DNA of 64,000 nt from Longimicrobium sp. (GTDB lineage Bacteria; Gemmatimonadota; Gemmatimonadetes; Longimicrobiales; Longimicrobiaceae): contig NZ_DATIND010000152.1 in the NCBI RefSeq assembly GCF_035474595.1, forward strand, positions 3,518 through 67,517, read 5' to 3'. Shown piece after piece: positions 3-49,740 of this stretch. The notes beneath the pieces are model-generated. The model saw only the letters and a list, made by a program, of their open reading frames with translations. It was not told the DNA's origin and ran no database searches. The position numbers and the translations under genes were made by a program. Every line of letters starts with the position of its first letter. The first letter of the stretch is position 1.

Positions 3-3000
3 CTGGATGTGGACGCGCTCCGCCGCGCGCTCGGCGAGATCGTCCATCGCCACGAATCGCTGCGGACCACGTTCGCGGCGACGGCGGACGGGTCGGTGCA
101 GGTCGTTCACCCACAAGGGGATAGGGGACAGGGGACGGGGGACGGGGAGCACGGCGGGTTCCATCTCCCGGTCTACGATCTGCGCGCGGATCCCGATGCG
201 GAGGCAGAGGCGCGGCGGATCGCGCGGATGGAGGCGGAGACGCCGTTCGACCTGACGCGCGACCTGCTGCTGCGCGCGGTGCTCGTCCGCGTCGCCGAGG
301 ACGAGCATCTGCTGGTGCTCAATCTCCATCACGTCGCGGGGGACGGGTGGTCCGTCGGCGTGCTCTTCCGCGAGCTGGCGGCGCTGTACGCGGCGTTCCG
401 CGCGGGTGAGCCGTCTCCGCTCCCCGACCTTCCCGTGCAGTACGCGGATTTCGCGGTGTGGCAGCGCGAATGGCTGCGCGAGGAGGTGCTGGAGGCGCAG
501 CTCGCGTACTGGCGCGGCCGCCTCGCCGGCGCGCCCGCGGTGCTGGAGCTGCCGACGGACCGTCCGCGTCCGGCCACGCAGAGCTACCGCGGCGCCGTCG
601 TCCCCTTCGACGTCCCCGCAGGGCTGGCGGCGCGGCTGCGCGAGGCGGCGCGGCGCGCGGACGCCACGCCGTTCATGGTGCTGCTGGCGGGCTTCGGGCT
701 CCTCATCCACCGCCTCAGCGGCCGCGACGACGTGGTGGTCGGCTCGCCCATCGCGGGGCGCGTGCGGCGCGAGGTGGAGGGGATGATCGGGTTCTTCGTG
801 AACACGATGGCGCTGCGCACCGACCTCTCCGGCGACCCCTCGTTCGCGCGGCTGATCGCGCGGGTGCGGGAGACGACGCTGGACGCGTACGCGCACCAGG
901 ACCTGCCGTTCGAGCGCGTGGTCGAGGAGCTGCAGCCGGAGCGGACGCTCAGCCGCAACCCGCTGTTCCAGGTGGCGTTCGCGCTGCAGAACGTGGCGAT
1001 GGAGCCGGTGGACGCGCCCGGCGTGCGGCTGCGGCTGGAGGACGTGGACAGCGGCACCAGCAAGTTCGACCTCTTCCTGGAGATGCTGGAGGAGGGCGGC
1101 CGCCTCCGCGGAAACCTGGAGTACGCGACGGATCTCTGGGAGCGCGCGTCGGCCGAGCGGATGGTGTCGCTCTTCATGCGCCTGCTGGAGGAGATGGTTG
1201 GCGATGCAAACCGCCCCATCTCCGCCGCGGGGCTGCTGACCGATGCGGCGCGAACCGAGCTGCTCGCGATCGGAGGCGAGACGGCGCGCGCCTATCCGCG
1301 CGATTCCACCATCCCCGCGCGCTTCGCGGCGATCGCCGCCGCGTGCCCGGACGCCGTCGCCGTCGCGTGGGACGGCGGCGCGATGTCGTACGCGGAGCTG
1401 GACGCGCGCTCCAATCGTCTCGCGCACCACCTGATCGCGCACGGCGTCGGCCCGGACGCGCCCGTCGCGCTGCTGGCGGAGCGCTCGCCGGAGCTGGTCG
1501 TCGCCATCCTCTCGATCCTGAAGGCGGGCGGTGCCTACGTCCCCCTCAACCCCAAATATCCCCGCAGCCGCATCGCGCTGATGCTGGAGGATTGCGGCGC
1601 GCGGCTCGTGATCACCGACGGTCCGCGGGAGATGGGGCGCGCGGGGATGACGGTCGTGCGGCTGGACACGGACGCGGCGGCGATTGCGTCCCGACCGGCC
1701 GATGCGCCGCGTGTCGCCATCGATGCGGAGAACGCGGCGTACGTCATCTACACGTCGGGGTCGACAGGGCGGCCGAAGGGGGTGGTGGTGCCGCATCGCG
1801 CGGTGCTGCGGCTGGTGATCGGGAACGGCTTCGCCGAGATGGGCGCGGACCAGACGTGGCTCCAACTGGCCCCTGTAGCGTTCGACGCGAGCACGCTGGA
1901 GCTGTGGGCGCCGCTGCTGAACGGCGGCCGGCTGGCGCAGTATCCCCCCATCGAGGTGGACCCGGCGGAACTGGGTGCGTTCATCCGGCGGCAGGGCGTC
2001 ACCGGCGCGTGGCTCACCGCTGGCCTCTTCCACGCGATGGTGGACGTCGCGCCCGACGCCATCTTCGCGCTGCGCCAGCTCCTGGCGGGCGGCGACGTCC
2101 TTTCCGCGCCGCACGTGCGCCGGGTGCTGGAATCGGCGCCGCATCTGTGCCTCATCAACGGCTACGGGCCCACCGAGAACACGACGTTCTCCTGCTGCCG
2201 CACCATCGTCGCGGCGGACGTGGCGTGCGCGTCCATCCCCATCGGCACGCCCATCTCCAACAGCACCGCGTACGTTCTGGACGAGCGGATGCGCCCCGTC
2301 CCTCCCGGCATCCCCGGCGAGCTGTACGTGGGCGGCGACGGCCTGGCGCGCGGCTACCTGGGCGCCCCCGCGCTGACGGCCGAGCGCTACGTCCCGCACC
2401 CGTTCAGCGACGTGCCCGGCGCGCGTCTGTACCGCACCGGCGACCGGGTGAGATGGTGCGAAAGTGCGAAAGTGCGAGAGTGCGAAAGTAACTCAACGCG
2501 CGGTGGCGCCTTTTCTCCTCCGACACTCCAGCACCCGACGCTTACGCAATCAGTTGCAGGCCCCGCCGATCCCGTCCCTCCCCCAGGCAGTTTTGGGGGA
2601 GGGAAAGGCGAGGGACGAGCCAGGGAGAGGGCCCGCGGAGCCGAGGAAACGCGCCCGGATTCGTCCGGCGACGAGTCCACTCTCGCACTTTCGCACTCTC
2701 GCACTTTCGCACTTCAGTTCCTCGGCCGCATCGACGAGCAGGTCAAAATTCGCGGCTACCGCATCGAGCCCGGCGAGGTCGCGGCGGTGCTGGAGCGCAG
2801 CCCGCTCGTGGCGCGCGCCGCCGTCCACGTGCGCGAGGACGCGCCGGGGGAGAAGCGCCTCGCCGCCTACGTCATCCCCGCGAAGCGCGAAACCGTCAGC
2901 GGCACGGAAGATGGGGAGACGGCGGACAGGCAGGTGCGGCAGTGGGAGACGCTGTTCGACGACGTCTACACCGGCTCGCGGGGGACGGAAGCGGGGGACG

Positions 3001-4633: not shown

Positions 4634-7600
4634 ATGGCCGACGTCGCCAACCGCCTGCAGGAGCTTTCCCCCGAGCGGCGCCGGCTGCTGGAGCTGCGGC
4701 TGCGGATGCAGCGCGAGCAGGCGGCCGGCCCGGAGCTGCGTCCGCGCGCGCGGCCGGACGGCACCGCGCCGCTCAGCTACGCGCAGGCGCGGCTCTGGGT
4801 GCTGGAACGGATGGACCCCGGCAGCGCCGCGTACAACATGCCGCATCCGCTCCGCATCCGCGGGGATCTGGACGCGGCGGCGCTGGCCCGCGCGCTGGAT
4901 GCGCTCCGCGCGCGCCACGAGACGCTGCGGACGACGATCGCCGAGCGGGACGGCGAGCCGGTGCAGGTCATAGGGGACATCGTAGGGGACAGGGGACAGG
5001 CGACAGGGGATAGGGGGAACGGCGGGAGGGCGGCGCACCTGCCGCTCGTCGATTTGTCCGGTTTGTCCGACGCCGCGCGGGAGGCGGAGGTGCGGCGGCG
5101 GATCGATGCGGACGCGAATACCGGGTTCGACCTGGTCGCGGGGCCGCTGGTGCGCGCGTCGCTGCTGCGGCTGGCGGCGGACGAGCACGTGCTGCTGCTG
5201 TGCATGCACCACGTCGTGAGCGACGGATGGAGCATGGGCGTGTTCGCGCGCGAGCTGGGCGAGCTGTACGCCGCCGGGCGCGACGGGCGCGATCTGAAGA
5301 TGCCGCCGCTGGCCGTGCAGTACGCGGACTTCGCGGCGTGGCAGCGCGAGCATCTCCAGGGCGCGGTGCTGGAGCGGCTGTCGGCGTTCTGGCGCGATGC
5401 GCTGGAGGGCGCGCCGCCCGCGCTCGACCTCCCCACCGACCACCCCCGCCCCCCGGCTGAGAGCCACCGCGGCCGCACGCTGAAGACGCGCATCGAACCC
5501 GCCACCGCGAACCGGCTTCGCGAGCTGGCGCGGAACGAGGGCGCGACGCCGTTCAACGTGCTCGCCGCCGCCGTGCGCGCCACGCTGGCGCGGTACGCGG
5601 GGCAGGACGACGTGGTGCTGGGGACACCGGTCGCGAACCGGACAAGGAGCGAGCTGGAGGGGCTGATCGGCTTCTTCGTGAACACGCTGCCGCTGCGGCT
5701 GCGCATTGATCCCGGCGAGAGCTTCCGCGCGCTGGTGCGGCGCGAGAGGGACGTGGCGCTCGCCGCGTTCAACCACCAGGACCTGCCGTTCGACCGCATC
5801 GTCGAGGCGCTGCGGCTGCCGCGCGACCCCGCGCGCAACCCCGTGTTCCAGGCGATGGTGACGCTGCAGAACGCGCGGATGGAGCCGGTGGCGCTCGGCG
5901 GCGTGGAGATCGCCCCGCTCGCGCCCGAGTACGACACGGCCAAGTTCGACCTCACCTTCGACCACTACGACGAGGACGACGGCGCCCTCCGCGTGGAGGT
6001 CGAGTGGGCGACGGACCTGTGGGACGCGGCGACGATCGAGCACCTGGCCGCGCGTTACGGGACGCTGCTGGACTCCGCGCTGCGGCGGCCGGACACCCCC
6101 GCGGGCGACCTCCCGCTCGTCTCCGGCCCCGAGCGCGCGGAACTGCTGCGGCTCTCCGCCGGGCCGGAGGCGGCGAGCGATCCCTCGCTCACGCTGCACG
6201 CGCTGTTCGAGGCGCAGGCGGCGCGCACCCCGGCGGCCACCGCGGTGACGTTCGAGGGTGAATCGCTGACCTACGCGGAGATGGATGGCCGCGCCAACCA
6301 GCTCGCGCATCTCCTCCGCGCGCGGGGCGTGGGGATGGAGACGCCGGTGGCGGTGATGATGGAGCGCTCGCTGGAGATGGTGGTTGCGCTCTACGGCATC
6401 CTGAAGGCGGGCGGATTCTTCATCCCCATCGACCCCGAGTACCCGGCGGATCGCATCGCGTGGATGCTGGAGGATTGCGCGGCGCGGCTGGTGCTGACGC
6501 AGGAGCGCTGGATCGCGCATCTCCCCGCGTCTCCCGAATCCATCGCGCTGGACGCGGCGGGCGTGCTGGACGGCTTCGACGCGGCGCCCGTCCTCGCAAC
6601 GGCGGACGCGGACGCGCTGGCGTACGTCATCTACACCTCCGGATCGACCGGCCGCCCCAAAGGCGCCGGGAACGCGCACCGCGGCATCGTCAACCGCGTG
6701 CTGTGGATGCTGGACGCGATCCCGCTGCGCGCCGACGACGTGGTGCTGCAGAAGACGCCGTTCACCTTCGACGTCGCGCTGTGGGAGTTCTTCTGCCCGC
6801 TCGCGGCCGGCGCGCGCCTCGCCGTCCTCGCGCCCGGCGCGCACCGCGACCCCGCGCGGGTGACGGAGATGGTCGCGCGCGAGGGGGTGACGGCGCTGCA
6901 CTTCGTCCCTTCGATGATGCAGCTCTGGCTGGACGAAGCGGATCCCGCGCGCGTCCCGACGATCCGCCGCGTAACCGCCAGCGGCGAAGCGATTTCCGCG
7001 GAGCTGCGCGACCGCTTCTTCGCGCGCTTTCCCGCCATCGAGCTGCACAACCTGTACGGCCCCACCGAGGCCGCCGTCGAGGTCACCTGGCACCGGTGCG
7101 CGCCGGGCGAGGGCGCCACCGTCCCCATCGGCCGCCCCGTCGCGAACACGCGCATCCACGTGCTGGACGGGCGCGGCCACCCGTGCCCGAGCGGCGTCCC
7201 CGGCGAGCTGCACATCGCCGGCGTCCAGGTGGCGCGCGGGTACTGGCGCCGCCCGGCGCTGACGGCGGAGCGCTTCGTCCCCGACCCGTTCGGAGCGGCG
7301 GGCGCGCGCATGTACCGCACGGGAGACCGGGCGAGATGGTGCGAAAGTGCGACAGTGCGAGAGTGCGAAAGTAACGGTCCGGCACTCCAGCATCCGACGC
7401 TCACGCAATCGGTGACAGGCCCCGCGAACCCCGTCCCTCCCCCAGGCAGTTTTGGGGGAGGGACAGGCGAGGAACGAGCCAGGGAGAGGGCCGCCGAAGG
7501 CGCGGACACGCACTCTCGTACTCTCGCACTGGAGTACCTGGGCCGCTTCGACTTCCAGGTGAAGATCCGTGGCGTGCGCGTCGAGCTGGGGGAGATCGAG

Positions 7601-10600
7601 TCCGCGCTCGCGGCCGACGCGTCCGTGCGCGAGGCGGTGGTGGTGGCGCGCGGGGCGGGGAACGAGGCGCAGCTGGTCGCGTATGTCGTGGCCGCGCGGG
7701 AGCGGGGGATCGCGGTGGAGGCGCTGCGCGAACGGCTCGCGCGGACGCTGCCACCGTACATGGTGCCCGCCGCGTTCGTGGAGATGGCCGCGCTGCCGCT
7801 CACCTCCAGCGGCAAGGTGGATCGCAAGGCGCTCCCCGCGCCCGCCACGCCCTCCGCCGATGCCCACGCCGCGCCGCGCACGCCGGGCGAGGAGGTGCTG
7901 GCCGGCATCTGGTCGCGCGTCCTCCGCGCCGAGCGCGTGGGGATCGACGACGACTTCTTCCTGCTCGGCGGGCAGTCGCTGCTGGCGACGCAGGTGGTGT
8001 CGCGCATCCGTGGCGCGTTCGGAGTGGAGGTGCCGTTGCGCGCGGTGTTCGAGGCGCCGACCGTCCGCCGCCTGGCCGCGCGGATCGAGGCGCTGCGCGG
8101 CACGGGCGAGGCGCCGCTCCCGCCCGTCGTCCCCACGGATCGCGGCGGGGCGATGCCGCTTTCGTTCGCGCAGGAGCGGACGTGGTTCCTGGAGCGGATG
8201 GAGCCCGAAGCGGGCGCGTACAACATGCCCGTCCGCATCCGCCTGCGCGGCGAGATCGACGCGCAGGCGCTGCGGTGCGCGCTGGAAACCGTGGTCCATC
8301 GCCACGAGGCGCTGCGGACGCGAATCCGCGAGGAAAACGGCCTCGCCACGCAGACGGTCGCCCCGCCGGAGCCTCTCCATCTCCCGCTGGTGGAAGCAGA
8401 TGGCGAGGCCGCGGCGATGCGGGTGCTGGACGAGGAGGCGTGGCGCCCGATCGACCTGGAGCGCGGCCCCACGCTCCGCGCGCTCCTCGTCCGCATCGTG
8501 GCCGAGGACGAGCGCGTAAGCGAGGCCGGCGCCGACGCCGGGTCACTCTCGCACTCTCGCACTCTCGCACTTTCGCACCCCGTTCCCGAGCACGTGCTCG
8601 CGCTGAACGTGCACCACGCGCTCGCCGACGGCTGGTCGCTCGGCATCATCCTGCGCGAGGCGTCGGCGGCGTACGAGACGATCGCGCGCGGCGAGGAGCC
8701 GGAGCTGCCGCCCGTCTCCCTCCAGTACGGCGACTTCGCGGCGTGGCAGCGGGCGCATCTCACCCCCGAGCGCATCGCGGTGGAGGCGCGCTGGTGGCGC
8801 GAACGGCTCGCCGGCGCGCCGCCGCTGCTGGAGCTGCCGACCGATCGTCCGCGTCCCGCGCGCCGCGCCCACCGCGGCGCCGCGCTGACCTTCCATCTCC
8901 CCCTCGATCTCGTGGCGCGGGTCCACGCGCTGGCGGCGGAGGAGGGCGCGACCGCGTTCATGGCGCTGCTGGCCGGCTGGCAGGCGCTGCTGGGGCGGCT
9001 TTCGGGGCAGGAGGACGTTGTCGTCGGGACCCCGCAGGCGGGGCGCGCGCGGGCGGAGACGGAGGGGATCGTCGGCCTGTTCGTGAACATGCTGGCGCTG
9101 CGCGGCGACCTGTCCGGCGACCCGCCGTTCCGGGCGCTATTGGCGCGGGCGCGAGAGGCCACGCTGGGCGCGTTCGCGCACGCCGAGCTGCCGTTCGAGA
9201 AGCTGGTCGAGGCGCTGGAGACCGAGCGCTCGCTCAGCCATGCGCCCGTCTTCCAGGCCATGTTCACGCTGCACAGCCAGGAGACGGGGTGCCTGGCGCT
9301 CCCCGGGGTTTCCGCGTCTTTCGGCGAGATCGGCGAGCGCGCGGCCAAGCTGGACCTGTCGCTGAACCTGGAGGCCACGGCGGGTGGGGGGATGGAGGGC
9401 GTCCTCGAATACGCCACCGACCTCTTCGACGCTGTCACGGCAGAGCGGATCGCCGCGCGTTTCGCGACGCTGATGCAGGCATTCGCCGCCGATCCCGACG
9501 CGCGCATCTCGGCCGCATCCGCGCTGCTGCCGGGCGAGCGCGAGCGGCTGCTGGCCTGGGGCGACGGGGGAGACGCGGCGCCGTTCGTCGCCACGCACCA
9601 GCTCGTCTCCGCCGCCGCGCAGTTGAGGCCCGATACGGCCGCGTTGCGGTTCGGGGAGATGGAGATCGGCTATGGGGAGATGGAGCGCCGCGCGGGTGCA
9701 CTGGCCGCGGTCCTGCGCGAGGCGGGCGTGCGCGCCGGCGTCCCCGTGGCGGTGATGCTGGAGCGCGGGCCGGAGCAGGTGATCGCCGCGCTGGCGGCGT
9801 GGAAGGCGGGCGGCGCGTTCCTCCCCATCGACCCCGCGTACCCGGCCGGGCGGCGCGCGTACATGCTGGCCGACAGCGGCGCGCGCGTCCTCCTCACCAG
9901 CGGAAAGCTGGCGGACGGGCTCGACACCGGCGCCGCGCGCGTGATCGACATCGCCGGCGCGGACGCACGCGAGCCGGTGGATGCGAGCGACGCCGATCCC
10001 GCCACCCTCGCGTACGTCATCTACACCTCCGGCTCCACCGGGCGGCCGAAGGGGGTGGAGGTCTCGCACGGCGCGCTGGCCAATCTCCTTGCCGCGACGC
10101 GCAATGCGTTCGGCGTCCGCGCGGGCGACGTGATGCCGGCGCTGGCCTCGTTCGCCTTCGACATCTGGCTCTTCGAGGCCGTCCTGCCGCTCACCGCGGG
10201 CGCCACCGTGCGCATCGTGAGCCGCGAGCGCGTGCTGGACGCCGCCGCGCTGGCCGAGGACGCGGCGGACGCCACGCTGCTGCACGCCGTCCCCGCACTG
10301 ATGCGCGAGGTGGCGCGTGCGGGGCGGCTTCCGCGGCTGCGGCGCACCTTCGTCGGCGGCGACCGGGTCCCCGCCGACCTGGCGGCGGAGATGCGTGCCG
10401 CCTTCCCATCCGCCGAAACCCACATCCTTTACGGCCCCACGGAGGGGACGATCCTCGCCTCCGCGCACGCCGTCCCCGCGGACGCGCGCGTGGACGGGCA
10501 CCCGATCGGACAGCCGTTCGCCGGCGTGCGCCTGTACGTCTGCGACCCGGCCGGCGGCCTGCAGCCCCCCGGCGTCGCCGGCGAGCTGCTGATCGGCGGC

Positions 10601-13600
10601 GCGGGCGTGGCGCGCGGCTACCTGGGCCGCGCGGCGCTCACTGCGGAGAAGTTCACGCCCGACCCATTCGGAGCGCCGGGAGGGAGGCTGTATCGCACGG
10701 GAGACCGCGCGAGATGGTGCGAAAGCGCGAAAGTGCGAGAGTGCGAAAGTAACCACCCGGCACACCCGCATCCGACGCTCGCGCCGGTGGATGCAGGCCG
10801 CGCCGATTCCGTCCCTCCCCCAGGCAGTTTTGGGGGAGGGACAGGCGAGGAACGAGCCAGGGAGAGGGCCCGCGGAGCCGAGGAAACACTCGCTGCCGAG
10901 CCTCGCGATGAGTCCACTTTCGCACTTTCGCACTCTCGCACTTTCGCACCTTCTCGTACTTTCGCACTTCAGTTCCTGGGTCGATCCGACAACCAGGTGA
11001 AGGTCCGCGGCTTCCGCATCGAGCCGGGCGAGGTGGAGGCGGCGCTCGCGGACCAACGCGGCGTGCTCGAGGCGGTGGTGATGGTTCGCGCCTCCGCGAC
11101 GGGCGAGCCGCGCCTGCTCGGGTGGGTGACGCCGCGTCCCGAATCGGCCATCGACGGCACGACGCTGCGGGCGGCGCTCCGGCGCACGCTCCCCGAGCAC
11201 ATGGTGCCGGCGGAGGTGACGGTCCTCGACGCCTTCCCGCTTACGCCCAACGGCAAGGTCGACCGTGCCGCCCTCCCCGAGCCCGGCCGTACCGCATCCG
11301 CCGCCGACGCCGTGCCGCGCACGCCGACCGAAAAGGCGCTGGCGGAGGTGTGGCGCGAGGTGCTGGGCGTCGATCACGTCGCGCGCGGGGATGGGTTCTT
11401 CGCGCTGGGCGGGCACTCGCTGCTGGCGGCGCGCACGGTGTCGCGGATCCGCGGCGAGCTGGGCGTCGACCTCCCGCTCCGCGACCTGTTCGACGCGCAG
11501 ACGCTGGAGACGCTCGCCGCGCGCATCGACGCGGAGCGCGCCGGCGCGGGAGGCGTGGCGGACGAGCCGATCGCCCGCGTGCCGCGCGACCGGCCGCTGG
11601 CGCTCTCGTTCGCGCAGGAGCGGCTCTGGTTCCTCGATCGCCTGGTTCCCGGCGGCACCGCGTACAACCTGCCGATGCTGCTGCGCCTCCGCGGCCCGCT
11701 GGACCGCGATGTCCTCGCCCGCGCGCTGACCGAAATCGTGCGGCGGCACGAGGCACTGCGCACCGTCTTCGCGCGCACGGACGCCGGGCCGGTGCAGGTC
11801 ATCCATCCCCCCGCGCCCGTCCATCTCCCCTTCACCGACCTGTCGCGCGAGGCCGATCCCCAGGCGGCGTTGCGGGGGGAGATGGATCGCGATGCGTCGA
11901 CCCCGTTCGACCTGGAGCGCGGGCCGCTTCTCCGTCTCCATCTCCTCCGCCTGGGCGACGACGAGCACGCGCTGCTGGTGACGCTGCACCACGTGGCCGG
12001 AGACGCGTGGAGCCTGGAGCGTTTCTACGCCGAGCTGACGGCGCTCTACGGCGCGTTCGCGGCGGGGCGGCCCTCGCCGCTGGACGACCTTCCGGTGCAG
12101 TACGCGGACTTCGCGGCGTGGCAGCGAGGGTGGCTGGCGGGCGACCGGCTCCGCGCGCAGACGGCGTACTGGGCGCGGAAGCTGGCCGGCGCTCCGGTGC
12201 TGGAGCTCCCCGCCGACCGCCCGCGCCACGGCCTGCCGACGCTCGCCGCGGGGCACGTGGAGACCGTGCTCCCGGTGGCCGATGCCGAGCGGATCGAAGC
12301 GGCCGCGCGCGTGGAGGGGGCGACGCCGTTCATGGCGTATCTGGCCCTCTACTGCGCGCTGCTGGCGCGGTGGAGCGGGGAGGACGACGTGGTGGCCGGC
12401 TCCGCCGTGGCGGGGCGGACGCGGGCGGAAACGGAGCCGCTGATCGGCTTCTTCGTGAACGCGCTGGCGCTGCGGACGGACCTCTCCGGCGATCCCACCT
12501 TCCGCGAGCTGCTGCGGCGCGTGCGCGAGACCACGCTGGAGGCGTACGCGCACCAGGACGTGCCCTTCGAGAAGGTGATCGAGTCGCTGAAGCTGGAGCG
12601 CGCGCTCGGCCGCCATCCGCTTACGCCCGCGTCGTTTACGCTGCACCACGAACGCCCCGTCCCCCAGCCGCCCGGGCTGGCGGTGACGGTGGACGCGGAC
12701 GCGGGCGACACCGGCGCGGCCAAGGCCGAGCTGACGCTGGGGATCGTGCGCGGCGAGGGCGCGGCGCGCTGCTCGTGGGAGTACGCCGCCGACCTCTTCG
12801 ACGCGGCGACGATCGAGCGCGTCGCCGGCCGATTCGCGGCGCTGGCGCGCGGGGCGGCGGCCGATCCGGACGCGCGGATCTCCGCGCTGGTGGCCCGCGC
12901 GGAGGCCGGCGAGCGGCGGCAGGTGCTGGCGTGGGGCGTGGCCGAGGCGCCGTATCCCCGCCGCCCCATCCACCGGCTCGTGGCCGAGCAGGCGGCGCGG
13001 ACGCCGGACGCGGTCGCGCTCTCCCGCGGCGCCGAGCGGATGACGTATTCGGAGCTGGACGCCGCCGCCAGCCGCCTCGCGCGCCTTCTCGTCCTTCGCG
13101 GCGTCGGCCCCGAGAGCCGCGTCGGCATCGCCGCGGACCGCATGGCGGGGACGATCGTCGCGGTGCTGGGGGTGCTGAAGGCGGGCGGCGCGTACCTCCC
13201 CCTGGACCCGGCGTACCCGCCGCAGCGGCTGCGCTACATGCTGGACGATTCGGGCGTCCGCACCGTCGTCGCGCCCTCCGCCGCCTCCGCGTCCACGCTG
13301 CCGCTGGACGGCATCGGCGTGGTGGCGCTGGACGCGGAGGCGGACGCGCTCGCGGCGCTTTCGCCGGACGATCCCGGCGTGGAGGTGGACGCGGACAACC
13401 TCGCGTACGTCATCTACACCTCCGGCTCCACCGGGCTGCCGAAGGGCGTGCTCGTGCCCCATCGCGGCATCCCCAACCTGATCGGCGCGCAGGTCCGCCG
13501 CTGGGGCGTCGGCGCGCGGAGCCGCGTGCTGCAGTTCGCCACCTTCGCCTTCGACGCGGCGGTGATCGACGTCTTCACCGCGCTCACCACGGGCGCCACG

Positions 13601-14815
13601 CTGGTCCTGGCCGCGCGCGAGGAGCTGCTTGCGGGCGCGCCGCTCATCGAGCTGCTGCGCCGCGAGCGCATCACCGACGTCACCCTCCCGCCGTCGCTGC
13701 TGGCGGTGCTTCCGGACGCGGACCTTCCCGACCTGCGCACGCTCATCTCCGCGGGCGAGGCGGTGAGCCCGGCGGTGGTCGCGCGCTGGTCGCGCAGGCG
13801 CGAGATGTACGATGCGTACGGGCCCACGGAGATCACCGTCGCCGTCACCACCGGCCGGCTGGCGGCGGACGGGCCGCCGGCGCTGGGCCGCCCGCTGGAG
13901 AACGTGCGCGCGTACGTCCTGGACGCCCGGATGCAGCCGGTGGGCGTGGGGATTCCGGGCGAGCTGTACGTGGGCGGGCCGGGGGTGACGCGCGGCTATC
14001 AGGGCCAGCCGGGGCGCACCGCGGCGGCGTATCTCCCCGATCCGTTCGCGCCGCATCCGGGCGCGCGGATGTACCGCACCGGCGACCGCGTGCGCTGGCT
14101 GGACGACGGGCGGCTGCGGTTCCTGGGGCGGATGGACGCGCAGGTGAAGGTGCGCGGATTCCGCATCGAGCCCGGCGAGATCGCCTCCGTCCTCGCGATG
14201 GCCGATGGGGTGCGCGACGCGGTCGTCGTGCTCCGCGGCCAATCCCCCGACGCCCGCCTCGTCGCCTACGTCGTCCCCGATTCTCCTCCGGACTCCGATC
14301 TCCCGAACAGCGGGAAAAGCGGGGAGACGGGAGATGGAGATGCGTTCGCCGAGCGCCTGCGCGAGCATCTGCGCGCGCGCGTTCCCGAGCACATGATCCC
14401 GAGCGCGATCGTGCCGCTGGATGCGCTGCCGCTGCTGCCGAACGGGAAGATCGACCGCGCGCGCCTCCCCGATCCTCCCGCGCCATCGGGCGGCGCCGCG
14501 CCGCGCGGGGAGGTGGAGCGCACGGTGGCCGCGGCGTGGCGCCATGTGCTCGCGGTCGATGACGTCGGCGTGAACGACAACTTCTTCGAGGTGGGCGGCC
14601 ACTCGCTGCTCGCCGCGCGGCTGCAGGAGGCGCTGGAGAAGGCGCTCGGCCGCGAGATTCCCCTCGTCGACCTCTTCCGCCGCCCCACCATCCGCTCCTT
14701 CGCCGCCGCGCTGGACGCAGACGCCGCGAACGACGGGGCGGCCGCGGAGCCAGCGGCGGCGAAGCGGGGCGATGAGCGGGGCGCGGCGCGGCGGGCGGTG
14801 GTGCGGCGGCGGTAG
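4634..14815 (+). CDS. NRPS2: (C-A-T)x3; A codes approx. Ser-like DVWHTSLVEK, unassigned DIFHFGLILK, aromatic-like DAITIAAVAK
   Basis: ATG 4634 lies 3 nt after the NRPS1 stop; the upstream ORF-track extension overlaps NRPS1. Three HHxxxD C motifs, three A domains, T motifs GGQSL/GGHSL/GGHSL. Confidence 0.93.
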   Translation: MADVANRLQELSPERRRLLELRLRMQREQAAGPELRPRARPDGTAPLSYAQARLWVLERMDPGSAAYNMPHPLRIRGDLDAAALARALDALRARHETLRTTIAERDGEPVQVIGDIVGDRGQATGDRGNGGRAAHLPLVDLSGLSDAAREAEVRRRIDADANTGFDLVAGPLVRASLLRLAADEHVLLLCMHHVVSDGWSMGVFARELGELYAAGRDGRDLKMPPLAVQYADFAAWQREHLQGAVLERLSAFWRDALEGAPPALDLPTDHPRPPAESHRGRTLKTRIEPATANRLRELARNEGATPFNVLAAAVRATLARYAGQDDVVLGTPVANRTRSELEGLIGFFVNTLPLRLRIDPGESFRALVRRERDVALAAFNHQDLPFDRIVEALRLPRDPARNPVFQAMVTLQNARMEPVALGGVEIAPLAPEYDTAKFDLTFDHYDEDDGALRVEVEWATDLWDAATIEHLAARYGTLLDSALRRPDTPAGDLPLVSGPERAELLRLSAGPEAASDPSLTLHALFEAQAARTPAATAVTFEGESLTYAEMDGRANQLAHLLRARGVGMETPVAVMMERSLEMVVALYGILKAGGFFIPIDPEYPADRIAWMLEDCAARLVLTQERWIAHLPASPESIALDAAGVLDGFDAAPVLATADADALAYVIYTSGSTGRPKGAGNAHRGIVNRVLWMLDAIPLRADDVVLQKTPFTFDVALWEFFCPLAAGARLAVLAPGAHRDPARVTEMVAREGVTALHFVPSMMQLWLDEADPARVPTIRRVTASGEAISAELRDRFFARFPAIELHNLYGPTEAAVEVTWHRCAPGEGATVPIGRPVANTRIHVLDGRGHPCPSGVPGELHIAGVQVARGYWRRPALTAERFVPDPFGAAGARMYRTGDRARWCESATVRECESNGPALQHPTLTQSVTGPANPVPPPGSFGGGTGEERARERAAEGADTHSRTLALEYLGRFDFQVKIRGVRVELGEIESALAADASVREAVVVARGAGNEAQLVAYVVAARERGIAVEALRERLARTLPPYMVPAAFVEMAALPLTSSGKVDRKALPAPATPSADAHAAPRTPGEEVLAGIWSRVLRAERVGIDDDFFLLGGQSLLATQVVSRIRGAFGVEVPLRAVFEAPTVRRLAARIEALRGTGEAPLPPVVPTDRGGAMPLSFAQERTWFLERMEPEAGAYNMPVRIRLRGEIDAQALRCALETVVHRHEALRTRIREENGLATQTVAPPEPLHLPLVEADGEAAAMRVLDEEAWRPIDLERGPTLRALLVRIVAEDERVSEAGADAGSLSHSRTLALSHPVPEHVLALNVHHALADGWSLGIILREASAAYETIARGEEPELPPVSLQYGDFAAWQRAHLTPERIAVEARWWRERLAGAPPLLELPTDRPRPARRAHRGAALTFHLPLDLVARVHALAAEEGATAFMALLAGWQALLGRLSGQEDVVVGTPQAGRARAETEGIVGLFVNMLALRGDLSGDPPFRALLARAREATLGAFAHAELPFEKLVEALETERSLSHAPVFQAMFTLHSQETGCLALPGVSASFGEIGERAAKLDLSLNLEATAGGGMEGVLEYATDLFDAVTAERIAARFATLMQAFAADPDARISAASALLPGERERLLAWGDGGDAAPFVATHQLVSAAAQLRPDTAALRFGEMEIGYGEMERRAGALAAVLREAGVRAGVPVAVMLERGPEQVIAALAAWKAGGAFLPIDPAYPAGRRAYMLADSGARVLLTSGKLADGLDTGAARVIDIAGADAREPVDASDADPATLAYVIYTSGSTGRPKGVEVSHGALANLLAATRNAFGVRAGDVMPALASFAFDIWLFEAVLPLTAGATVRIVSRERVLDAAALAEDAADATLLHAVPALMREVARAGRLPRLRRTFVGGDRVPADLAAEMRAAFPSAETHILYGPTEGTILASAHAVPADARVDGHPIGQPFAGVRLYVCDPAGGLQPPGVAGELLIGGAGVARGYLGRAALTAEKFTPDPFGAPGGRLYRTGDRARWCESAKVRECESNHPAHPHPTLAPVDAGRADSVPPPGSFGGGTGEERARERARGAEETLAAEPRDESTFALSHSRTFAPSRTFALQFLGRSDNQVKVRGFRIEPGEVEAALADQRGVLEAVVMVRASATGEPRLLGWVTPRPESAIDGTTLRAALRRTLPEHMVPAEVTVLDAFPLTPNGKVDRAALPEPGRTASAADAVPRTPTEKALAEVWREVLGVDHVARGDGFFALGGHSLLAARTVSRIRGELGVDLPLRDLFDAQTLETLAARIDAERAGAGGVADEPIARVPRDRPLALSFAQERLWFLDRLVPGGTAYNLPMLLRLRGPLDRDVLARALTEIVRRHEALRTVFARTDAGPVQVIHPPAPVHLPFTDLSREADPQAALRGEMDRDASTPFDLERGPLLRLHLLRLGDDEHALLVTLHHVAGDAWSLERFYAELTALYGAFAAGRPSPLDDLPVQYADFAAWQRGWLAGDRLRAQTAYWARKLAGAPVLELPADRPRHGLPTLAAGHVETVLPVADAERIEAAARVEGATPFMAYLALYCALLARWSGEDDVVAGSAVAGRTRAETEPLIGFFVNALALRTDLSGDPTFRELLRRVRETTLEAYAHQDVPFEKVIESLKLERALGRHPLTPASFTLHHERPVPQPPGLAVTVDADAGDTGAAKAELTLGIVRGEGAARCSWEYAADLFDAATIERVAGRFAALARGAAADPDARISALVARAEAGERRQVLAWGVAEAPYPRRPIHRLVAEQAARTPDAVALSRGAERMTYSELDAAASRLARLLVLRGVGPESRVGIAADRMAGTIVAVLGVLKAGGAYLPLDPAYPPQRLRYMLDDSGVRTVVAPSAASASTLPLDGIGVVALDAEADALAALSPDDPGVEVDADNLAYVIYTSGSTGLPKGVLVPHRGIPNLIGAQVRRWGVGARSRVLQFATFAFDAAVIDVFTALTTGATLVLAAREELLAGAPLIELLRRERITDVTLPPSLLAVLPDADLPDLRTLISAGEAVSPAVVARWSRRREMYDAYGPTEITVAVTTGRLAADGPPALGRPLENVRAYVLDARMQPVGVGIPGELYVGGPGVTRGYQGQPGRTAAAYLPDPFAPHPGARMYRTGDRVRWLDDGRLRFLGRMDAQVKVRGFRIEPGEIASVLAMADGVRDAVVVLRGQSPDARLVAYVVPDSPPDSDLPNSGKSGETGDGDAFAERLREHLRARVPEHMIPSAIVPLDALPLLPNGKIDRARLPDPPAPSGGAAPRGEVERTVAAAWRHVLAVDDVGVNDNFFEVGGHSLLAARLQEALEKALGREIPLVDLFRRPTIRSFAAALDADAANDGAAAEPAAAKRGDERGAARRAVVRRR
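4971..5020 (+). repeat. AGGGGAC heptamer array in frame in the NRPS2 first C domain
   Basis: Encodes GDIVGDRGQATGDRGN; same site as in NRPS1. Confidence 0.85.
7339..7529 (+). repeat. In-frame palindromic A7-A8 insert, copy 2 (63 codons)
   Basis: Same arms (right arm shortened) and same core; lies between RW and LEYLGR. Confidence 0.95.
8544..8578 (+). repeat. CACTYTCG octamer array inside a C-domain loop of NRPS2
   Basis: Four full units plus a partial one, the same unit as the right arm of the A-domain inserts; part of an approx. 26-aa extra segment. Confidence 0.9.
10717..10967 (+). repeat. In-frame palindromic A7-A8 insert, copy 3 (83 codons)
   Basis: Same arms (right arm extended) and same core. 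Confidence 0.95.
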
Positions 14816-20119: not shown

Positions 20120-23100
20120 ATGAGCGACACGCAGACACCGCCGATCTCCCCCGACCGCCTCGCGTCCGCCAAGCGCCAGCTCCTCGCGCGGCGGCTGCGC
20201 GGCGAGGTGAAGGCGCCCGCGCCGCGCGACGCCATCCGCAAGGCGCCGGGCGGGCCCGCGTACCCCATGAGCTATCAGCAGGAGCAGCTCTGGTTCCTGG
20301 ACCAGCTCCAGCCGGGAAGCCCGTTCTACAACATCCCCTCGGCCAACCTGGTCTCCGCGCGCATCGACGTGCCCACGCTGGAGCGCGCGCTGGGCGAGAT
20401 CGTGCGCCGGCACGAGGCGCTGCGCACCGTCTTCCGCCTGGTGGACGGGCGGCCGATGCAGATCGTGCAGCCGCCTTTCGCCCTCCGCGTTCCCGTGGAG
20501 GAGCTGCGCGGCGCGGACGGCGGAGACGCGCCCGCGGAGAGGGTGCGGCGCAAGGTGGGCGAGTGGGGCGCGCTCCCGTTCGACCTGCAGAACGGGCCGC
20601 TCATCCGCGCGCGGCTGTACCGCGTGTCGGAAGACGACTGCATGCTGGCGATGAACATCCACCACATCGCCACCGACGGCTGGTCAATGCCGCTCATCAC
20701 CCGCGAGATGGAGGAGCTGTACGAGGCCTTCGCGCGCGGCGAGCCGTCGCCGCTGGCCGAGCTGGAGGTGCAGTACGCCGACTACTCGGTCTGGCAGCGC
20801 GAGCACCTGGCCGGCGCGGCGATGGAGCGGCAGCTGGGCCACTGGCGCCGCCACCTGGAAGGCGCGCCGCCCTCGCTCGACCTTCCGTACGACCGGCCGC
20901 GCCCCGCCGTGCAGCGCAACCGCGGCGCCATCCACCGCTTCGTCTATCCCGCCGCGCTCACCTCGCAGTTGCACGCGCTGGGGACGGCGGAGCACGCGTC
21001 GGTGAACATGGTGTTCATGGCGGGCTTCAACCTCCTGCTGCAGCGCTACAGCGGGCAGAGCGACCTGGTGGTGGGCACGCTGCTGGGGAACCGCAACCGC
21101 GCGGAGCTGGAGTCGCTGGTCGGCTACTTCGTGAACTCCGGCGCCATCCGCACCCGGCTGGACGGCGACCCCACCTTCCGCGAGGTCGTGCGCCAGGTGC
21201 GCACCTCGGTGCTGGAGGCCGACGCCGCGCAGGAGGTGCCGTTCGACCGCGTGGTGGACGCCGTGGGCGCGCCGCGCGACCCCGCGCGCAACCCGCTGTT
21301 CCAGGTCATGTACTTCCACCACACCTTCGTGGGGATGCACCACCTGGACGACGAGGAGGGGCTGGCGTCGTCGCTGAACCTGCGCTCGCTGTACCAGGAG
21401 ACCGACGTGGTGCTGGTGGACACCGGCGCCGCCAAGTTCGACATGACCTGGGCCACGCTGGAGCAGGACGGCGCGCTCACGTCGATGGTGGAGTATTCGA
21501 CGGATCTGTTCGACGAGTCGACCATCGCCCGCATGGTGGCGCATCTCCGCGCGCTCCTGGCCGACGCCTGCGCCCGCCCGGACGTCCCCCTCTCCCGGCT
21601 GGAGATGGTGACAGCGGAGGAGCGGGAGATGCTGCTCGCCGCGGGGACCAACGAGGGCGCGTTCCCCCGCGGCGTCTCGCTCCCCGCGCTACTGCGGGCG
21701 CGCGCGGAGGCGATGCCGGACGCCGCCGCGGTGGAGTTCGAGGACGCATCGTGGACGTATGCGCAGCTCGCCGCGCGCGCCGACGCCGTCGCCGCGCGGC
21801 TGCTGCGCCTGGGCGTGGCGCCGGGGGACGCGGTCGGCATCGAGGCGGCCAGCACCGCGCGGGTCGTCGCCTCCATCGCGGGGGTGCTGCGGCTGGGCGC
21901 GGCGGTGGTCCCGCTCGACCCCGAATATCCGCGCGAGCGGCTGGCGTTCATGGCCGGCGACACGGGCATCCGCGCCGTCCTCGCCGAAGGAGACCGGCTG
22001 GCGTGGCTCGGCGAGCGCCCCGGCACCACCGTCGTCCGGCTGGACCGCGAGTGGGCGGAGATCGAGGCGGAGCCCGTCCCCCACCATCTCCCCGACGCCG
22101 ATCCCGAGGCCGCCGCCTACCTCATCTACACCTCCGGATCGACCGGGACGCCGAAGGGGGTGCGCGTTCCCCACCGCGCGGTCGTGCGGACCACGCATCG
22201 CCCCGATTACGTGGAGATCGGGCCCGGCGCGCGGATGGCGCAGCAGAGCAGCCTGTCGTTCGACGCGTCGGTGTTCGAGGTGTGGGGCGCGCTGCTGAAC
22301 GGCGCCACGCTGGTGAACGTGCCGCGCGACATCCTCCTCGACGCGGGTGCGTACGGCCGCGCGCTGGCGGAGAAGCGCATCTCCGTGGCCTTCCTCACCA
22401 CCGGGCTCTTCCACCAGGTGGCGGACACGAACCCGGCCGCCTTCGCGTCGCTCGGCCACGTCCTCTTCGGCGGCGAAGCCGTGTCGGCCGCGCACGTGCG
22501 GCGGGTGAGCGAGGCGCATCCCCATCTCCGCCTGACCAACCTGTACGGCCCCACCGAGGTGGCGGTGGTCACCACCAGCCACCGCGTGGCCCCCGCCGAC
22601 GTGGAGCGCGCGTCGATCCCCATCGGCCGGCCGATCGGCGGGACGCGCGTGTACGTGATGACGGCGGGCGGGCAGATGGCGGGTGTGGGCGTGCCCGGCG
22701 AGCTGTACGCGGCGGGCGAGGGCGTGGCGCTGGGCTACCACCGCCGCCCGGAGCTGGATGCGGAGCGTTTCGTTCCGGATCCGTTCGTGGCGGGCGCCAT
22801 CGCGTACCGTACGGGCGACCGCGTGAGATGGTGCGAAAGTGCGAAAGTGCGAGAGTGCGAAAGTAACTCACCGCGCGCGGAGTTTTCTTCTCCGACACCC
22901 GGTCGCCCGACGCTCGCGCGGCCGTATGCAGGCCGCGCCGACCCCGTCCCTCCCCCAGGCAGTTTCGGGGGAGGGACAGGCGAGGAACGAGCCAGGGAGA
23001 GGGCCCACGAGGCCGAGGATCCGCGCGGTGCCGAATCCCGCGACGAACCCACTCTCGCACTCTCGCACTCTCGCACTTTCGCACTTCAGTTCCTGGGTCG

Positions 23101-25093: not shown

Positions 25094-25098
25094 GCGGG

Positions 25099-28000
25099 AT
25101 GAGCGACGCCGACCGCCTGGCCGCCCTCCCGGCCGAGAAGCGCCGCCTCCTCGAGGCGCGGCTGCGCATCGCGCGCGACGCCGTGTCCGGCGGCGGCGCC
25201 GGGGCGCTGCGCCCGCGCGCGCGGCCGGACGGCACGGCGCCGCTCTCGTTCGCGCAGCAGCGCCAGTGGCTGCTGGAGCGGATGGATCCGGGGACGGCGA
25301 CCTGGAACATGCCCGTGGCGCTGCGGCTCCGCGGCGCGCTCCACGTCCCGGCGCTGGAGCGCGCGCTCGACGCGCTGCGCGACCGGCACGAGTCGCTGCG
25401 CACCACCTTCGCCGAGCGCGGCGGCGCGGCGGTGCAGGTCGTCCACCCCTTCGTCCCCATCCCCCTGCCGGTCGAGGACCTGTCGCACCTCGACGGTTCG
25501 GAGCGCGAGGCCGAGGCGATGCGGCGCGCGCAGGCGGACATGGACGCGGGGTTCGCCCTGGCGGCCGGGCCGCTCTTCCGCGCGCGGCTGCTGCGGCTGG
25601 CCGCCGCCGACCACGCGCTGCTCCTGTGCATGCACCACATCGTCAGCGACGGGTGGAGCCTGGGGGTGATGGAGCGCGAGCTGGCCGCCCTCTACGCCGC
25701 CTTCGCCGCGGGGGCGCCGAACCCCCTGCCGCCGCCCGCGCTGCAGTACGCGGACTTCGCGGCATGGCAGCGCGAGTGGCTGTCGGGCGACCGGCTGGAC
25801 GGCGAGGTGGAGTTCTGGCGGCGCGCGCTGGCCGGCGCCCCGCCCGCGCTGGCGCTGCCCACCGACCACCCGCGCCCGCCGGTGAAGAGCGCGCGCGGCG
25901 CCCGCGTCTCGGTGGACCTGCCGCACGCGGTGGCGGAGCGGCTGCGCGCGCTGGCGCGGGGCGAGAACGCCACCCTCTTCGCCGTGCTGCTGGCGGCGCT
26001 CCGCGTGGTCCTCACGCGCTGGTCCGGCGACGACGACGTGGTGATCGGTACGCCGGTGGCCGGAAGGACGCGGATGGAGACGGAGGCGCTCGTCGGCTAC
26101 TTCGTGAACACGCTGGCGCTGCGCACGCCGCTCTCCGGCGACCCGCCCTTCCGCGCGCTGCTGCGCCGCGAGGCCGAGACGGCGCTGAGCGCGTTCTCGC
26201 ACCAGGAGCTGCCGTTCGACCGCGTGGTGGACGAGCTGAAGGCGCCGCGCGACCCCTCGCGCACGCCGCTCTTCCAGGTGATGCTCGCGCTCCGCAACGC
26301 CGGCGAGGACGGGCTCCGGCTCCCGGGTCTGGCTGTGGAGCCGATGGCGACGGAGCTGCACGTCAGCCGCTTCGACCTCACCTTCGAGGCGGCCGAATCC
26401 GACGGCGAGATCAACCTGGTCTGCGACTACGACGCCGCGCTCTTCGAGCCGTCCACCGCGCGCGCGCTCCTCGATCACCTCGCCCTCGTCCTCCACCGCG
26501 CCGCCGAATCCCCCGACGCGACGCTCTCCGCAGTGGCGACGTGGGACAAAAAGGACAACGCGCCCCGGGTCGCCCCGAACGACCCGGCATCGCTCCTGTG
26601 GGACAAAAAGGACAACGTCTCGGAGCGAAGCGAAACCGTCGTCAGCCGCTTCCTCGCCGCCGCGGCGCGGACGCCGGATGCGCCCGCGCTGGCGTGGCGC
26701 GATGGGGGGATGACATACGCGGAGCTGGAGATGCGCTCCGCCGCGCTGGCTGCCGGGCTGCGCGCCCGAGGCGCCGGGCCGGAGACGGTCGCCGGCGTGT
26801 TCGCCGAATGGTCGCCGGAGCTGGTGATCGCGCTGCTGGGAGTGATGCGCAGCGGCGCCGCGTATCTCCCGCTCGACGCGTCGCTCCCGCTTGAGCGCAT
26901 CGGCTGGCTGCTGGGGGATACGCACGCGCGCATCGTGGTGACGACGCCCGCCCTGCGCGACAGCCTTCCCGACGGCGGCCGCTTCGTAGCGCTGGTGGAT
27001 GCGGCGGAGACGGCGGACCGGGGGGATTGGGAGGACGGGGAGATCGACCCCGATTCCGCCGCCTGGATCGTCCACACCTCGGGGACGACGGGCGCGCCGA
27101 AGGGCGTCGTGGTCCCGTACGGCGCGGTGGCCGCGCACCTGGCCGCGGTCGCGGAGGCGTACGGGCTGGCGCCGGAGGATCGGACGCTCGGCTTCGCGGC
27201 GCTGTCGTTCGATCCGTCGCTGGAGCAGGTGCTGGCGCCGCTGGCCGTCGGCGCGTCCGTCGCCCTGCGCGACGCGGAGCCGTGGACGCCGGAGGAATTA
27301 GCGCGGCGCCTCCCGGCGCTGGGCGTCACCGTCGCCAATCTCCCCACGCCGTACTGGCACCAGCTCGTCCGCGAGCCGGAGGCGGCCGCCGCGGTGAAGC
27401 GATCCGTCCGCCTCCTCGTTGCCGGCGGCGAAGCCATGCACCCCGACGCCGTCCGCGCCTGGGACGCGCTCCCCGGCGGCGCCGCGCTGCTGAACGCGTA
27501 CGGCCCCACCGAGGCCGTCGTCACCGCCACCTTCTTCCCCGTCCGCGACGGCTTCGCGGCCGCCGACCCTGCGCGCGTCCCCATTGGCGCGGCGATCGCC
27601 GGCCGCGAGCCGCGCGTGGTAGACGCGATGCTGCGCGCGGTCCCGAACGGTGCGCCCGGCGAGCTCTGCCTGGGCGGCCCCGCGCTGGCCCGCGGCTACC
27701 TGCGCGCCCCCGCCCTCACGGCGGAGCGCTTCGTCCCCGACCCGTTTTCCCGCGAGGCGGGGGCGCGGATGTACCGAACGGGCGACCGCGTGAGATGGTG
27801 CGAAAGTGCGAAAGTGCGACAGTGCGAAAGTATCAACTCGGCACTCCCGCATCCGACGCTCACGCCGATGGATGCAGGCCCCGCGAACCCCGTCCCTCCC
27901 CCAGGCAGTTTTGGGGGAGGGACAGGCGAGGAACGAGCCAGGGAGAGGGCCCGCGGAGGCGCGGAAACGCGCACCGCCGACTCCTGCGATGTGTCCACTT

Positions 28001-44227: not shown

Positions 44228-47671
<3,444 letters not shown>

Positions 47672-49613: not shown

Positions 49614-49740
49614 CGGTAGGCAATCTCGTTCTGGGGGGTCGATGTCCATCGCAGTCGTCGCATCTTTCGACGCCGCCATCTCCCGAATGGTTTGAACCCG
49701 CGGGCGCGGAAGCTGGCCGACCCCACCGAAATCACCCTCC

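Follow-up and report, generated by a model that had tools for sequence, protein, structure and literature searches.

Eight of the nine adenylation (A) domains encoded in a 64,000-nt stretch of the genome of Longimicrobium sp. (contig NZ_DATIND010000152.1, positions 3,518 to 67,517; hereafter the window) carry a homologous DNA insert at the identical codon position, as found by translation and a regex scan. The site lies between motifs A7 (YRTGD) and A8 (GRxDxQVK), at the boundary of the Acore and Asub subdomains, which confirms the placement made in a first-pass annotation of this DNA. The window has a GC content of 73% and encodes a hybrid nonribosomal peptide synthetase (NRPS)-polyketide synthase assembly line, in which C, A, T, MT, KS, AT and KR domains were identified by Pfam. 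Our preferred explanation, held with moderate confidence, is that the insert is a palindromic element similar to the Rickettsia palindromic elements (RPEs) and to REPINs, which is carried in frame, is tolerated in a surface hairpin, and was spread or homogenized among the modules by recombination.

The architecture of each copy comprises five parts, namely left arm, left spacer, 62-nt core, right spacer and right arm (Table 1). Two octamer arrays were located in copy 1 by Tandem Repeats Finder: the left one at 2456-2489 is (GTGCGAAA)x4.2, composed of (GTGCGARA) units, and the right one at 2678-2714 is (CACTTTCG)x4.6, composed of (CACTYTCG) units, the reverse complement of the left arm. A 22-nt pattern of the arm, searched with up to three mismatches allowed, has 51 occurrences in the window, where shuffled sequence predicts 0.01. 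The arms of copy 1 pair over about 33 bp into an outer stem, while a 12-bp inner hairpin is found in the core. The RNA fold of 2448-2720 (273 nt) has an energy of -145.7 kcal/mol with z = -7.6 against dinucleotide shuffles, and the fold-back of (GTGCGARA)x4 onto (TYTCGCAC)x4 described earlier is thereby borne out. The core, CCGTCCCTCCCCCAGGCAGTTTTGGGGGAGGGACAGGCGAGGAACGAGCCAGGGAGAGGGCC, barely changes among the copies. The left spacer has an extra segment of about 24 nt in copies 1, 4, 7 and 8 (21 nt in copy 4), and the right arm contains three to six TYTCGCAC units, longer in copies 3, 5 and 7 and shorter in copy 2, as its reported length variation implied.

The element starts a few bases 5' of 2456. 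The Arg codon AGA at the junction (2451-2453) is assigned to the element because AGA makes up only 2 of the 1135 Arg codons elsewhere in the NRPS genes, yet is present at seven of the eight junctions; the empty site of the ninth domain uses CGC for this conserved Arg of 'RW'. From the shared AGA, the unit common to the domains extends into the host motif. The junction codons of the empty site, GTG CGC TGG (V-R-W), already contain the GTGCG of the octamer.

In the occupied domains, 63-89 residues replace the 5-residue beta-turn between RW and L(Q/E)(F/Y)LGR. All eight inserts have a length that is a multiple of three and contain no stop codon in the host frame. Of the six frames, two to four are interrupted by stops in seven copies and one is interrupted in copy 3. 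The insert arms had been described as stop-free in all six frames and not a multiple of three; the former holds for the octamer arrays but not for the whole insert (stops in one to four frames), and the latter for the 8-nt unit and the 34-37 nt arms but not for the complete inserts, which are all multiples of three. Alignments of the copies reveal at least six separate indels, again all multiples of three. Among them are an indel of about 24 nt in the left spacer and a large right-side deletion in copy 2; the right arm is longer by 18 nt in copy 3 and by 12 nt in copies 5 and 7, and copies 4 and 8 show 3-nt differences. Five copies in metagenome-assembled genomes (MAGs), at loci L014, L020, L005, L008 and L027, likewise have a length divisible by three and an uninterrupted host frame. 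That all indels are multiples of three points to selection for an intact reading frame, which is not needed if the segment is removed at the level of DNA, RNA or protein. This strict frame preservation argues that the insert is translated rather than removed.

Both components of the element belong to dispersed repeat families. A scan with the core pattern, covering one genome per species, gave 29 loci, all of them in six Longimicrobium/Longimicrobiaceae (Gemmatimonadota) MAGs. At 24 of these loci no convincing open reading frame (ORF) spans the core, which typically follows stop codons or is surrounded by other repeats; its consensus is ..AGCCGCGAGCGAAGCGAGCCC-GTCCCTCCCCCAGGCTGTTTTGGGGGAGGGAC-AGGCGCGAAGCGCC-AGGGAGAGGGCC. 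The other five are inside long NRPS ORFs. Two of them (L014 and L020) are located at the A7-A8 site, agree with the window copies in orientation, frame and sub-variant (..GCGAGGAACGAGCC..), and have no octamer arms. The remaining three (L005, L008 and L027) contain the intergenic type of core in a different frame (..TSEASPSLPQAVLGEGxARSARERA..) and elsewhere in NRPS sequences, namely in a linker that precedes a C domain, within a C domain, and upstream of A3. The insert is a DNA element and not a protein module, because one DNA sequence is translated in two frames depending on the site and in most places not at all. The core had no match in viral contigs, which speaks against a phage origin.

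The arm pattern was found at no fewer than 119 loci (748 kb) in a metagenome scan; the array counts given here are those among the matches listed. At least 156 octamer arrays were counted, 108 of which are non-coding, 22 near contig ends and unclassified, and 26 in candidate ORFs, although most of these 'coding' calls are just upstream of a start codon. Arrays paired within 400 nt always have the polarity GTGCG...CGCAC, 11:0 among the listed metagenome loci and 8:0 in the window (19:0 in total). This constant polarity indicates that the hairpin is one unit and no chance juxtaposition. Orientation and frame are also shared by the eight window copies and the two related MAG copies, and the idea that the element is designed to land in genes in either orientation finds no support. 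Since arms and core are both genome-wide and mostly non-coding families, an origin as selfish or neutral DNA is the simplest reading. Several intergenic array pairs follow stop codons or lie between genes, and two of them enclose terminator-like stems (L074 and L115). These two intergenic octamer hairpins (L074, 9210-9365; L115, 1187-1287) have a second GC-rich stem in the loop, with a T-run after the stem only in L074; another element is thus nested between the arms, as the core is in the window.

The same loop is colonized in other Longimicrobia. In 111 of the 120 best protein matches to the insert-bearing A-domain segment, the usual spacing of about 13 residues separates A7 and A8. In the other nine, which come from Longimicrobium MAGs and from soil metagenomes, the spacing is 34-45 residues and is made up of octamer hairpins with arms only; protein P0002, for example, reads RW-REVRECESAKVRRSHGDDSREDSSTLALSHARTFA-LEFVGR. 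Three further arms-only loops were found at L027, L035 and L049. The A7-A8 loop of Longimicrobia therefore shows three occupancies: arms only, core only, and arms with a nested core, the last in the genome of the window. An HMMER search of 1.84 billion cluster representatives recovered the composite peptide only from the window's own proteins and one 102-residue ORF, and the insert peptide gave no match among 5.8 billion proteins. In protein P0011, a second octamer-derived peptide (..GPTPALPHSRTHALPTAD..) is found downstream of A8 besides the A7-A8 hairpin; other loops of A domains are also colonized.

The inserts and their hosts have different histories. Among the copies, insert DNA is 78-88% identical, with arms and core near 100%, while the nine host A domains, compared without the insert, show identities of 38-54% (protein) and 55-64% (DNA). 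The similarity matrices of inserts and hosts are uncorrelated (r = -0.18), and the empty domain is no outgroup. Module duplication as the source of the eight copies is ruled out by this disparity between host protein and insert DNA identity and by the uncorrelated matrices. The inserts appear from the sequences to be younger than their hosts, or homogenized relative to them. They are also mosaic. The four-gamete test was failed by 188 of 300 pairs of informative sites, a PHI-type test was borderline (p = 0.05), and all four combinations of the left-spacer indel and the right-arm extension occur among the copies.

The position of the insert in the A domain was modeled with AlphaFold2 for copy 4, using a 40-row alignment. 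The model of the whole domain reaches a mean pLDDT of 84.8, and most blocks exceed 90. The insert has pLDDT values of 36-66, with residues 416-457 and 473-487 below 50. Two host strands are prolonged into the arms (E399-412 and E491-499), and one helix of moderate confidence (ERARERA..) is predicted within the insert. In the Protein Data Bank, 74 solved A-domain sequences match the flanks, and about 81 insert residues correspond to about two residues in them (e.g. LgrA 578-579). According to the model, the insert appears to form the tip of the A7-A8 beta-hairpin, as a surface loop that is largely disordered. Pfam matched only NRPS domains in the window, plus a true methyltransferase elsewhere, and recognized no folded enzyme domain in the insert. 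Motif A8 serves as the hinge for a rotation of Asub by about 140 degrees (PMC8097286).

These results are consistent with the following scenario. The element is built from two kinds of dispersed Longimicrobiaceae repeats, an octamer hairpin (GTGCGARA)n...(TYTCGCAC)n and a REP-like 62-nt core nested in its loop. Octamer hairpins would first have occupied the A7-A8 loops of several modules. The surviving versions would be those that are multiples of three and stop-free in the host frame, hence tolerated by the cell, and read-through translation would yield a largely disordered excursion of 63-89 residues from the surface hairpin. The perfectly repeated 34-nt arms, and perhaps the conserved DNA of A7 and A8, may then supply homology for gene conversion, by which the content between the arms (the REP-like core and the spacers) would be copied from module to module, among A domains that had already diverged, and the copies kept alike. 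Spread by recombination would explain why site and orientation are common to all copies, why the turn is cleanly lost, why the copies are mosaic, and why the AGA codon is shared. More speculatively, the GTGCG already present in the V-R codons of the host may have offered a microhomology that seeded the array or attracted it, and so account for the site preference. If slippage, ribosome speed or module shuffling is affected at all, this would be a side-effect rather than a design. A transposition-like route, by a REPIN/RAYT or miniature inverted-repeat transposable element (MITE) mechanism, is a possible alternative means of spread; no transposase family was found among the ten non-NRPS ORFs of the window that were scanned (four with Pfam matches and six without).

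Several points weigh against this scenario. Neither a transposase, a target-site duplication nor a donor copy was seen, the route of spread is one that we infer, and the window contains no intergenic copy of the exact composite. The identical codon position and the precise loss of five residues of the turn are more regular than random insertion plus selection predicts. Purifying selection acting on a structure or a binding site in the nucleic acid could also have kept arms and core near-perfect, and retention in eight of the nine domains and in other Longimicrobia could mean that the loop is useful. Frame preservation is, moreover, the single observation from which we infer that the insert is translated.

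As a tentative and rather unlikely variant, the inserts might act as a lineage-specific 'recombination linker' of Longimicrobia, a near-identical, hairpin-forming cassette of constant phase at the 3' border of each Acore. It would combine in-frame deletion, duplication or exchange of Acore or whole modules by homologous recombination with homing-like spread of internal sequence, such as the core, via the octamer arms.

An adaptive protein insertion, in which the loop at the Acore/Asub hinge would serve docking, control of domain alternation or oligomerization and would hence be kept in eight of nine modules, is improbable in our view. The in-frame recurrence, the shorter versions at the same site in other Longimicrobia, the adjacent A8 hinge and the short predicted helix all fit it. 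The sequences of the inserts do not. Pairwise differences between inserts are spread evenly over codon positions 1, 2 and 3 (0.145/0.164/0.134), and the inserts are less alike in protein (70% identity) than in DNA (83%), in agreement with the weak selection on the peptide suggested by the first-pass annotation. In the host, identity over the 90 nt that follow the insert drops clearly at the third codon position (0.76/0.80/0.62 for positions 1, 2 and 3); the contrast is weak in the 90 nt upstream (0.65/0.64/0.57). Rare codons (relative usage below 10%) amount to 30-38% of insert codons and 4% of those in the host genes. There is no detectable protein-level constraint on the insert except the exclusion of stops and frameshifts. 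The adaptive account is further opposed by pLDDT values mostly below 50, by the occurrence of element DNA between genes elsewhere and in another frame at other NRPS sites, and by the one module of the assembly line that has no insert.

Likewise improbable is a function in cis at the level of the nucleic acid, by which the hairpin and the rare codons would slow ribosomes after Acore emerges and so assist co-translational folding, stabilize the mRNA, or bind a factor. The energy of the fold, the near-invariance of arms and core at every codon position, the eight-fold density of rare codons over background exactly at the subdomain boundary, and the frequency of octamer arrays near gene ends speak for it. 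Rfam, however, gave no match at the gathering threshold over the whole window and only chance-level hits to the insert (E >= 0.07). Stem covariation across the copies had been proposed as a check; RNAalifold on the eight copies recovered identical stems in each of them but essentially no covariation, a compensatory change being present in only one of the 66 predicted pairs. Because the paired columns never vary, covariation neither supports nor refutes a structure. The fold is real as sequence complementarity, and a selected structure is not backed by covariation. The older arms-only MAG copies have decayed without compensation (L027), the repeats are also present at unrelated coding and non-coding places, and no T-run follows the stem. 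Ribosome pausing could plausibly follow, as a side-effect, from the strong stem and the eight-fold enrichment of rare codons.

A recombination cassette is a quite improbable explanation. It holds that repeats of the same phase at the 3' edge of Acore provide portable homology for in-frame deletion or duplication of modules and for Acore swaps, and are kept for product diversification. The eight direct repeats do share one frame, lie precisely where Acore meets Asub, include perfect tracts of 34-60 nt and are mosaic, and natural NRPS diversification exchanges Acore while retaining Asub (PMC8097286). Against this, recombinant modules were not seen, second-order selection for evolvability is a weak force, and at other places in the genes the heptamer and octamer repeats do not coincide with the borders of exchange units.

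Phase variation is very unlikely. Gain or loss of one 8-nt unit would shift the frame of the megasynthase, and each insert was suggested in the first-pass annotation to be a possible switch of this kind, which would make it a reversible ON/OFF locus. Simple-sequence contingency loci of this kind are known from Neisseria and Haemophilus, and the inserts resemble them in having a tandem unit that is not a multiple of three within an ORF; the number of arm units also differs between copies and loci. Unlike such loci, the arrays contain few units (about four per arm) and are mostly non-coding and hairpin-paired, and all eight assembled copies are ON, with no OFF allele or polymorphism seen. Although the tract could slip, no two copies differ by a clean 8-nt step, their length differences all being multiples of three. 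With eight such switches acting independently in the assembly line, the pathway would, in addition, be mostly OFF. We found no evidence that the inserts are a designed on/off switch. The public runs containing the locus are soil metagenomes only, where it is present as Logan contigs broken at the repeat. In soil run X1, the unique flanks are covered about 17x at 100% identity and the unitigs end inside the repeat; the left half of copy 8 is on a unitig at the same single-copy depth as these flanks. The 'joints' in these soil data are other A domains or other hairpins, not deletions at the locus. Strain comparison by exact-protein look-ups of neighboring genes retrieved one 2-kb contig identical to the window and otherwise nothing.

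Removal of the element before expression, as an intron, an intein or an excised DNA segment, can practically be dismissed: the ends resemble GT..AG (five copies start with GTGAGA and four end with ..TTCAG), seven of the eight inserts begin with Cys and the fold-back joins the two ends, but the GT is not conserved (GCG in three copies), Rfam has no intron match, covariation is lacking, and the conserved frame and freedom from stops, unneeded in a removed segment, speak for translation. A spliceosomal-type GT..AG intron is ruled out by the non-conserved GT and by the deletion of conserved host residues that GT-to-AG removal would cause, and an intein by the length of 63-89 residues (at least about 130 being typical) and by an end of ..RTFA followed by Leu, with no C-terminal HN plus Cys/Ser/Thr.

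Among known systems, RPEs are the closest phenomenon by analogy, as a functional class rather than a sequence family; kinship in sequence is not to be expected at 73% GC and in a different phylum. As summarized in PMC10969869, RPEs (Ogata et al. 2000) are dispersed palindromic repeats found in frame within genes at positions compatible with the protein fold. Going by that summary, both kinds are dispersed palindromic repeats of 100-250 bp that are located between genes and inside ORFs, where they are in frame, stop-free and add a peptide. The present family is likewise dispersed in and between genes, palindromic, a multiple of three and open, and by prediction occupies a fold-tolerant surface loop. 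It differs from RPEs in its host phylum (Gemmatimonadota, Longimicrobiaceae), in its tandem-octamer arms and in the hairpin with a nested REP-like core. A further difference is that RPEs occupy unrelated genes, while the present element is found again and again at a single homologous site in the paralogous domains of one enzyme family.

The REP, REPIN and BIME sequences of proteobacteria are high-copy short palindromes in mosaics, and a REPIN consists of two inverted REPs with a spacer that form one long hairpin (PMC3116915, PMC3337134). The element shares with REPINs the fixed polarity as a unit of two inverted units and a spacer (19:0 among listed loci and window), and its core has the C-rich/G-rich hairpin plus GGGAGAGGG layout of REPs. 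REPINs, in contrast, are extragenic and tied to a RAYT transposase, while the element is intragenic, apparently translated and devoid of the GTAG head. Similar to MITEs, including intragenic ERIC, BOX and Anabaena MITEs (PMC10969869), it is a small non-autonomous repeat with inverted ends that can add a peptide to ORFs. Unlike MITEs, it has no target-site duplication at the junctions, the 15-nt LDDGR turn is missing relative to the empty site, and its ends are tandem arrays instead of unique terminal inverted repeats.

The short tandemly repeated repetitive (STRR) heptamers of heterocystous cyanobacteria and the octamer arrays both form arrays of 7-8-nt units across the genome, most of them non-coding and many close to the ends of genes. 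The window also contains AGGGGAC heptamer arrays; the octamer arrays differ in forming inverted pairs and long hairpins repeatedly in frame within coding sequence. We know of no parent insertion sequence for the element. Interrupted A domains (Labby et al. 2015, cited in PMC8097286) contain folded enzymes (MT, KR or Ox) embedded at A8-A9, A2-A3 or A4-A5. Foreign sequence inside an apparently intact A domain is common to both, but the insert is located at A7-A8, matches no family and is predicted to be disordered. The A domain of copy 1 (2430-4631) is interrupted twice, by the repeat DNA at A7-A8 and by a methyltransferase (Pfam Methyltransf_12) at A8-A9. Literature searches on Longimicrobium repeats returned nothing on this element. 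From RPEs, REPIN/BIME mosaics and STRR repeats it is set apart by its tandem-octamer arms, a repeat nested in a repeat, the phylum, and the recurrence at one homologous site beside the hinge of NRPS A domains.

Table 1. Positions of the element copies, the parts of copy 1 and related arrays in the window.
Feature	Position	Strand	Details	Basis
Host A7 motif, copy 1 A domain	2430..2444	+	YRTGD	translation, regex scan, Pfam AMP-binding
Left arm, copy 1	2448..2489	+	degenerate unit GTGAGATG, then (GTGCGARA)x4	tandem-repeat and pattern scans
Left spacer, copy 1	2490..2571	+	differs between copies; partly complementary to right spacer	alignments, fold
Core, copy 1	2572..2633	+	near-invariant, 62 nt, CCGTCCCTCCCCCAGGCAGTTTTGGGGGAGGGA..AGGCGAGGRACGAGCCAGGGAGAGGGCC; 12-bp hairpin; REP-like family	eight window matches vs 0 expected
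Right spacer, copy 1	2634..2677	+	variable; small local hairpin CCGGATTCGTCCGG	alignments, fold
Right arm, copy 1	2678..2714	+	(CACTYTCG)x4.6	tandem-repeat scan, fold
Complete in-frame insert, copy 1	2457..2711	+	255 nt, 85 codons; arm start 2456	comparison with uninserted A domain
Host A8 (hinge) motif, copy 1	2724..2768	+	GRIDEQVKIRGYRIE	translation; hinge role PMC8097286
Copy 2	7331..7529	+	arm start 7339; insert 7340-7528, 189 nt; right spacer and most of right arm deleted	
Copy 3	10709..10969	+	arm start 10717; insert 10718-10966, 249 nt; right arm extended	
Copy 4	22823..23085	+	arm start 22831; insert 22832-23083, 252 nt; used for structure prediction	
Copy 5	27790..28038	+	arm start 27798; insert 27799-28041, 243 nt	
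Copy 6	31252..31494	+	arm start 31260; insert 31261-31491, 231 nt	
Copy 7	41679..41951	+	arm start 41687; insert 41688-41954, 267 nt	
Copy 8	46763..47031	+	arm start 46774; insert 46772-47029, 258 nt	
Ninth A domain, empty site	14072..14140	+	YRTGDRVRW-LDDGR-LRFLGRMDAQVK; no insert	
Solo right-type octamer array	8541..8578	+	in frame in condensation domain, turn before HHxxxDG	
Solo octamer array	49739..49778	+	intergenic, between divergent genes	
Variant octamer array	52315..52346	+	(GAGTGCGT)x4; last codons of acyl-CoA dehydrogenase gene 51125-52324, supplies its TGA stop	

Other repeats were observed in the window and in the metagenome loci. The array at 8541-8578 is part of an in-frame insertion of about 25 residues (..SEAGADAGSLSHSRTLALSHPVP..) that is absent from this position in the window's other C domains. 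Solo octamer arrays are often directly upstream of start codons with TTTCGCAC as the sense strand (e.g. L060, L072, L086, L093, L126, L128 and L131, and also L010); a crude count of their orientation there gives a modest excess of TTTCGCAC in sense, 89 versus 61. Such start-proximal arrays could have a role in the 5' leader or near the promoter, or could reflect an insertion preference. A second family of short tandem repeats inside these genes is represented by the heptamer arrays (AGGGGAC)n at 116-148, 4984-5024 and 30803-30837, which are in frame in NRPS condensation and adenylation domains and encode peptides of the type ..GDRGQGTGDG.. An intergenic composite at 62746-62936 has inverted tandem arms and consists of (AGGGGAC)x4, a perfect (CTCCGCGC)x8.9 and degenerate GTCCCCT-type units. 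The intergenic regions 14930-15170 and 43930-44165, between megasynthase genes, contain a common REP-like composite (..ACCCCCTCCCGTTATCGGGGCCCGTTATCGGGAGGGGGT-CGCGGCCCCAGCCGCG-GGGAGGGCC) with the same three-part layout as the insert core, at a depth of about 338 in run X1 against about 17 for single-copy sequence. The NRPS ORFs at 20120-25093 and 23878-32181 overlap by about 1.2 kb in different frames. A start of the second gene near 25.1 kb is probable, the product recorded in the public collection having 2360 residues, and the overlap would then be an artefact of listing the longest ORF.

Provided that the modules are active, 63-89 unstructured residues can be accommodated beside the Asub hinge, which makes the A7-A8 hairpin tip a natural permissive site. 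This site is outside the known positions of interrupted A domains and would be useful for tags, probes and split points in NRPS engineering. Domain predictors should expect an extra A7-A8 loop. The repeats also break short-read assemblies of Longimicrobia biosynthetic clusters inside A domains, and the 'partial' annotation of several protein-search matches is consistent with such breaks. The inserts may be a source of in-frame recombination between modules. The new architecture and the regularity of the site make target choice, gene conversion and concerted evolution testable, and the element is a tractable case for studying how repeats spread by conversion. The phenomenon of 'selfish DNA in genes' described in Rickettsia would also reach into a soil phylum that is free-living and of high GC.

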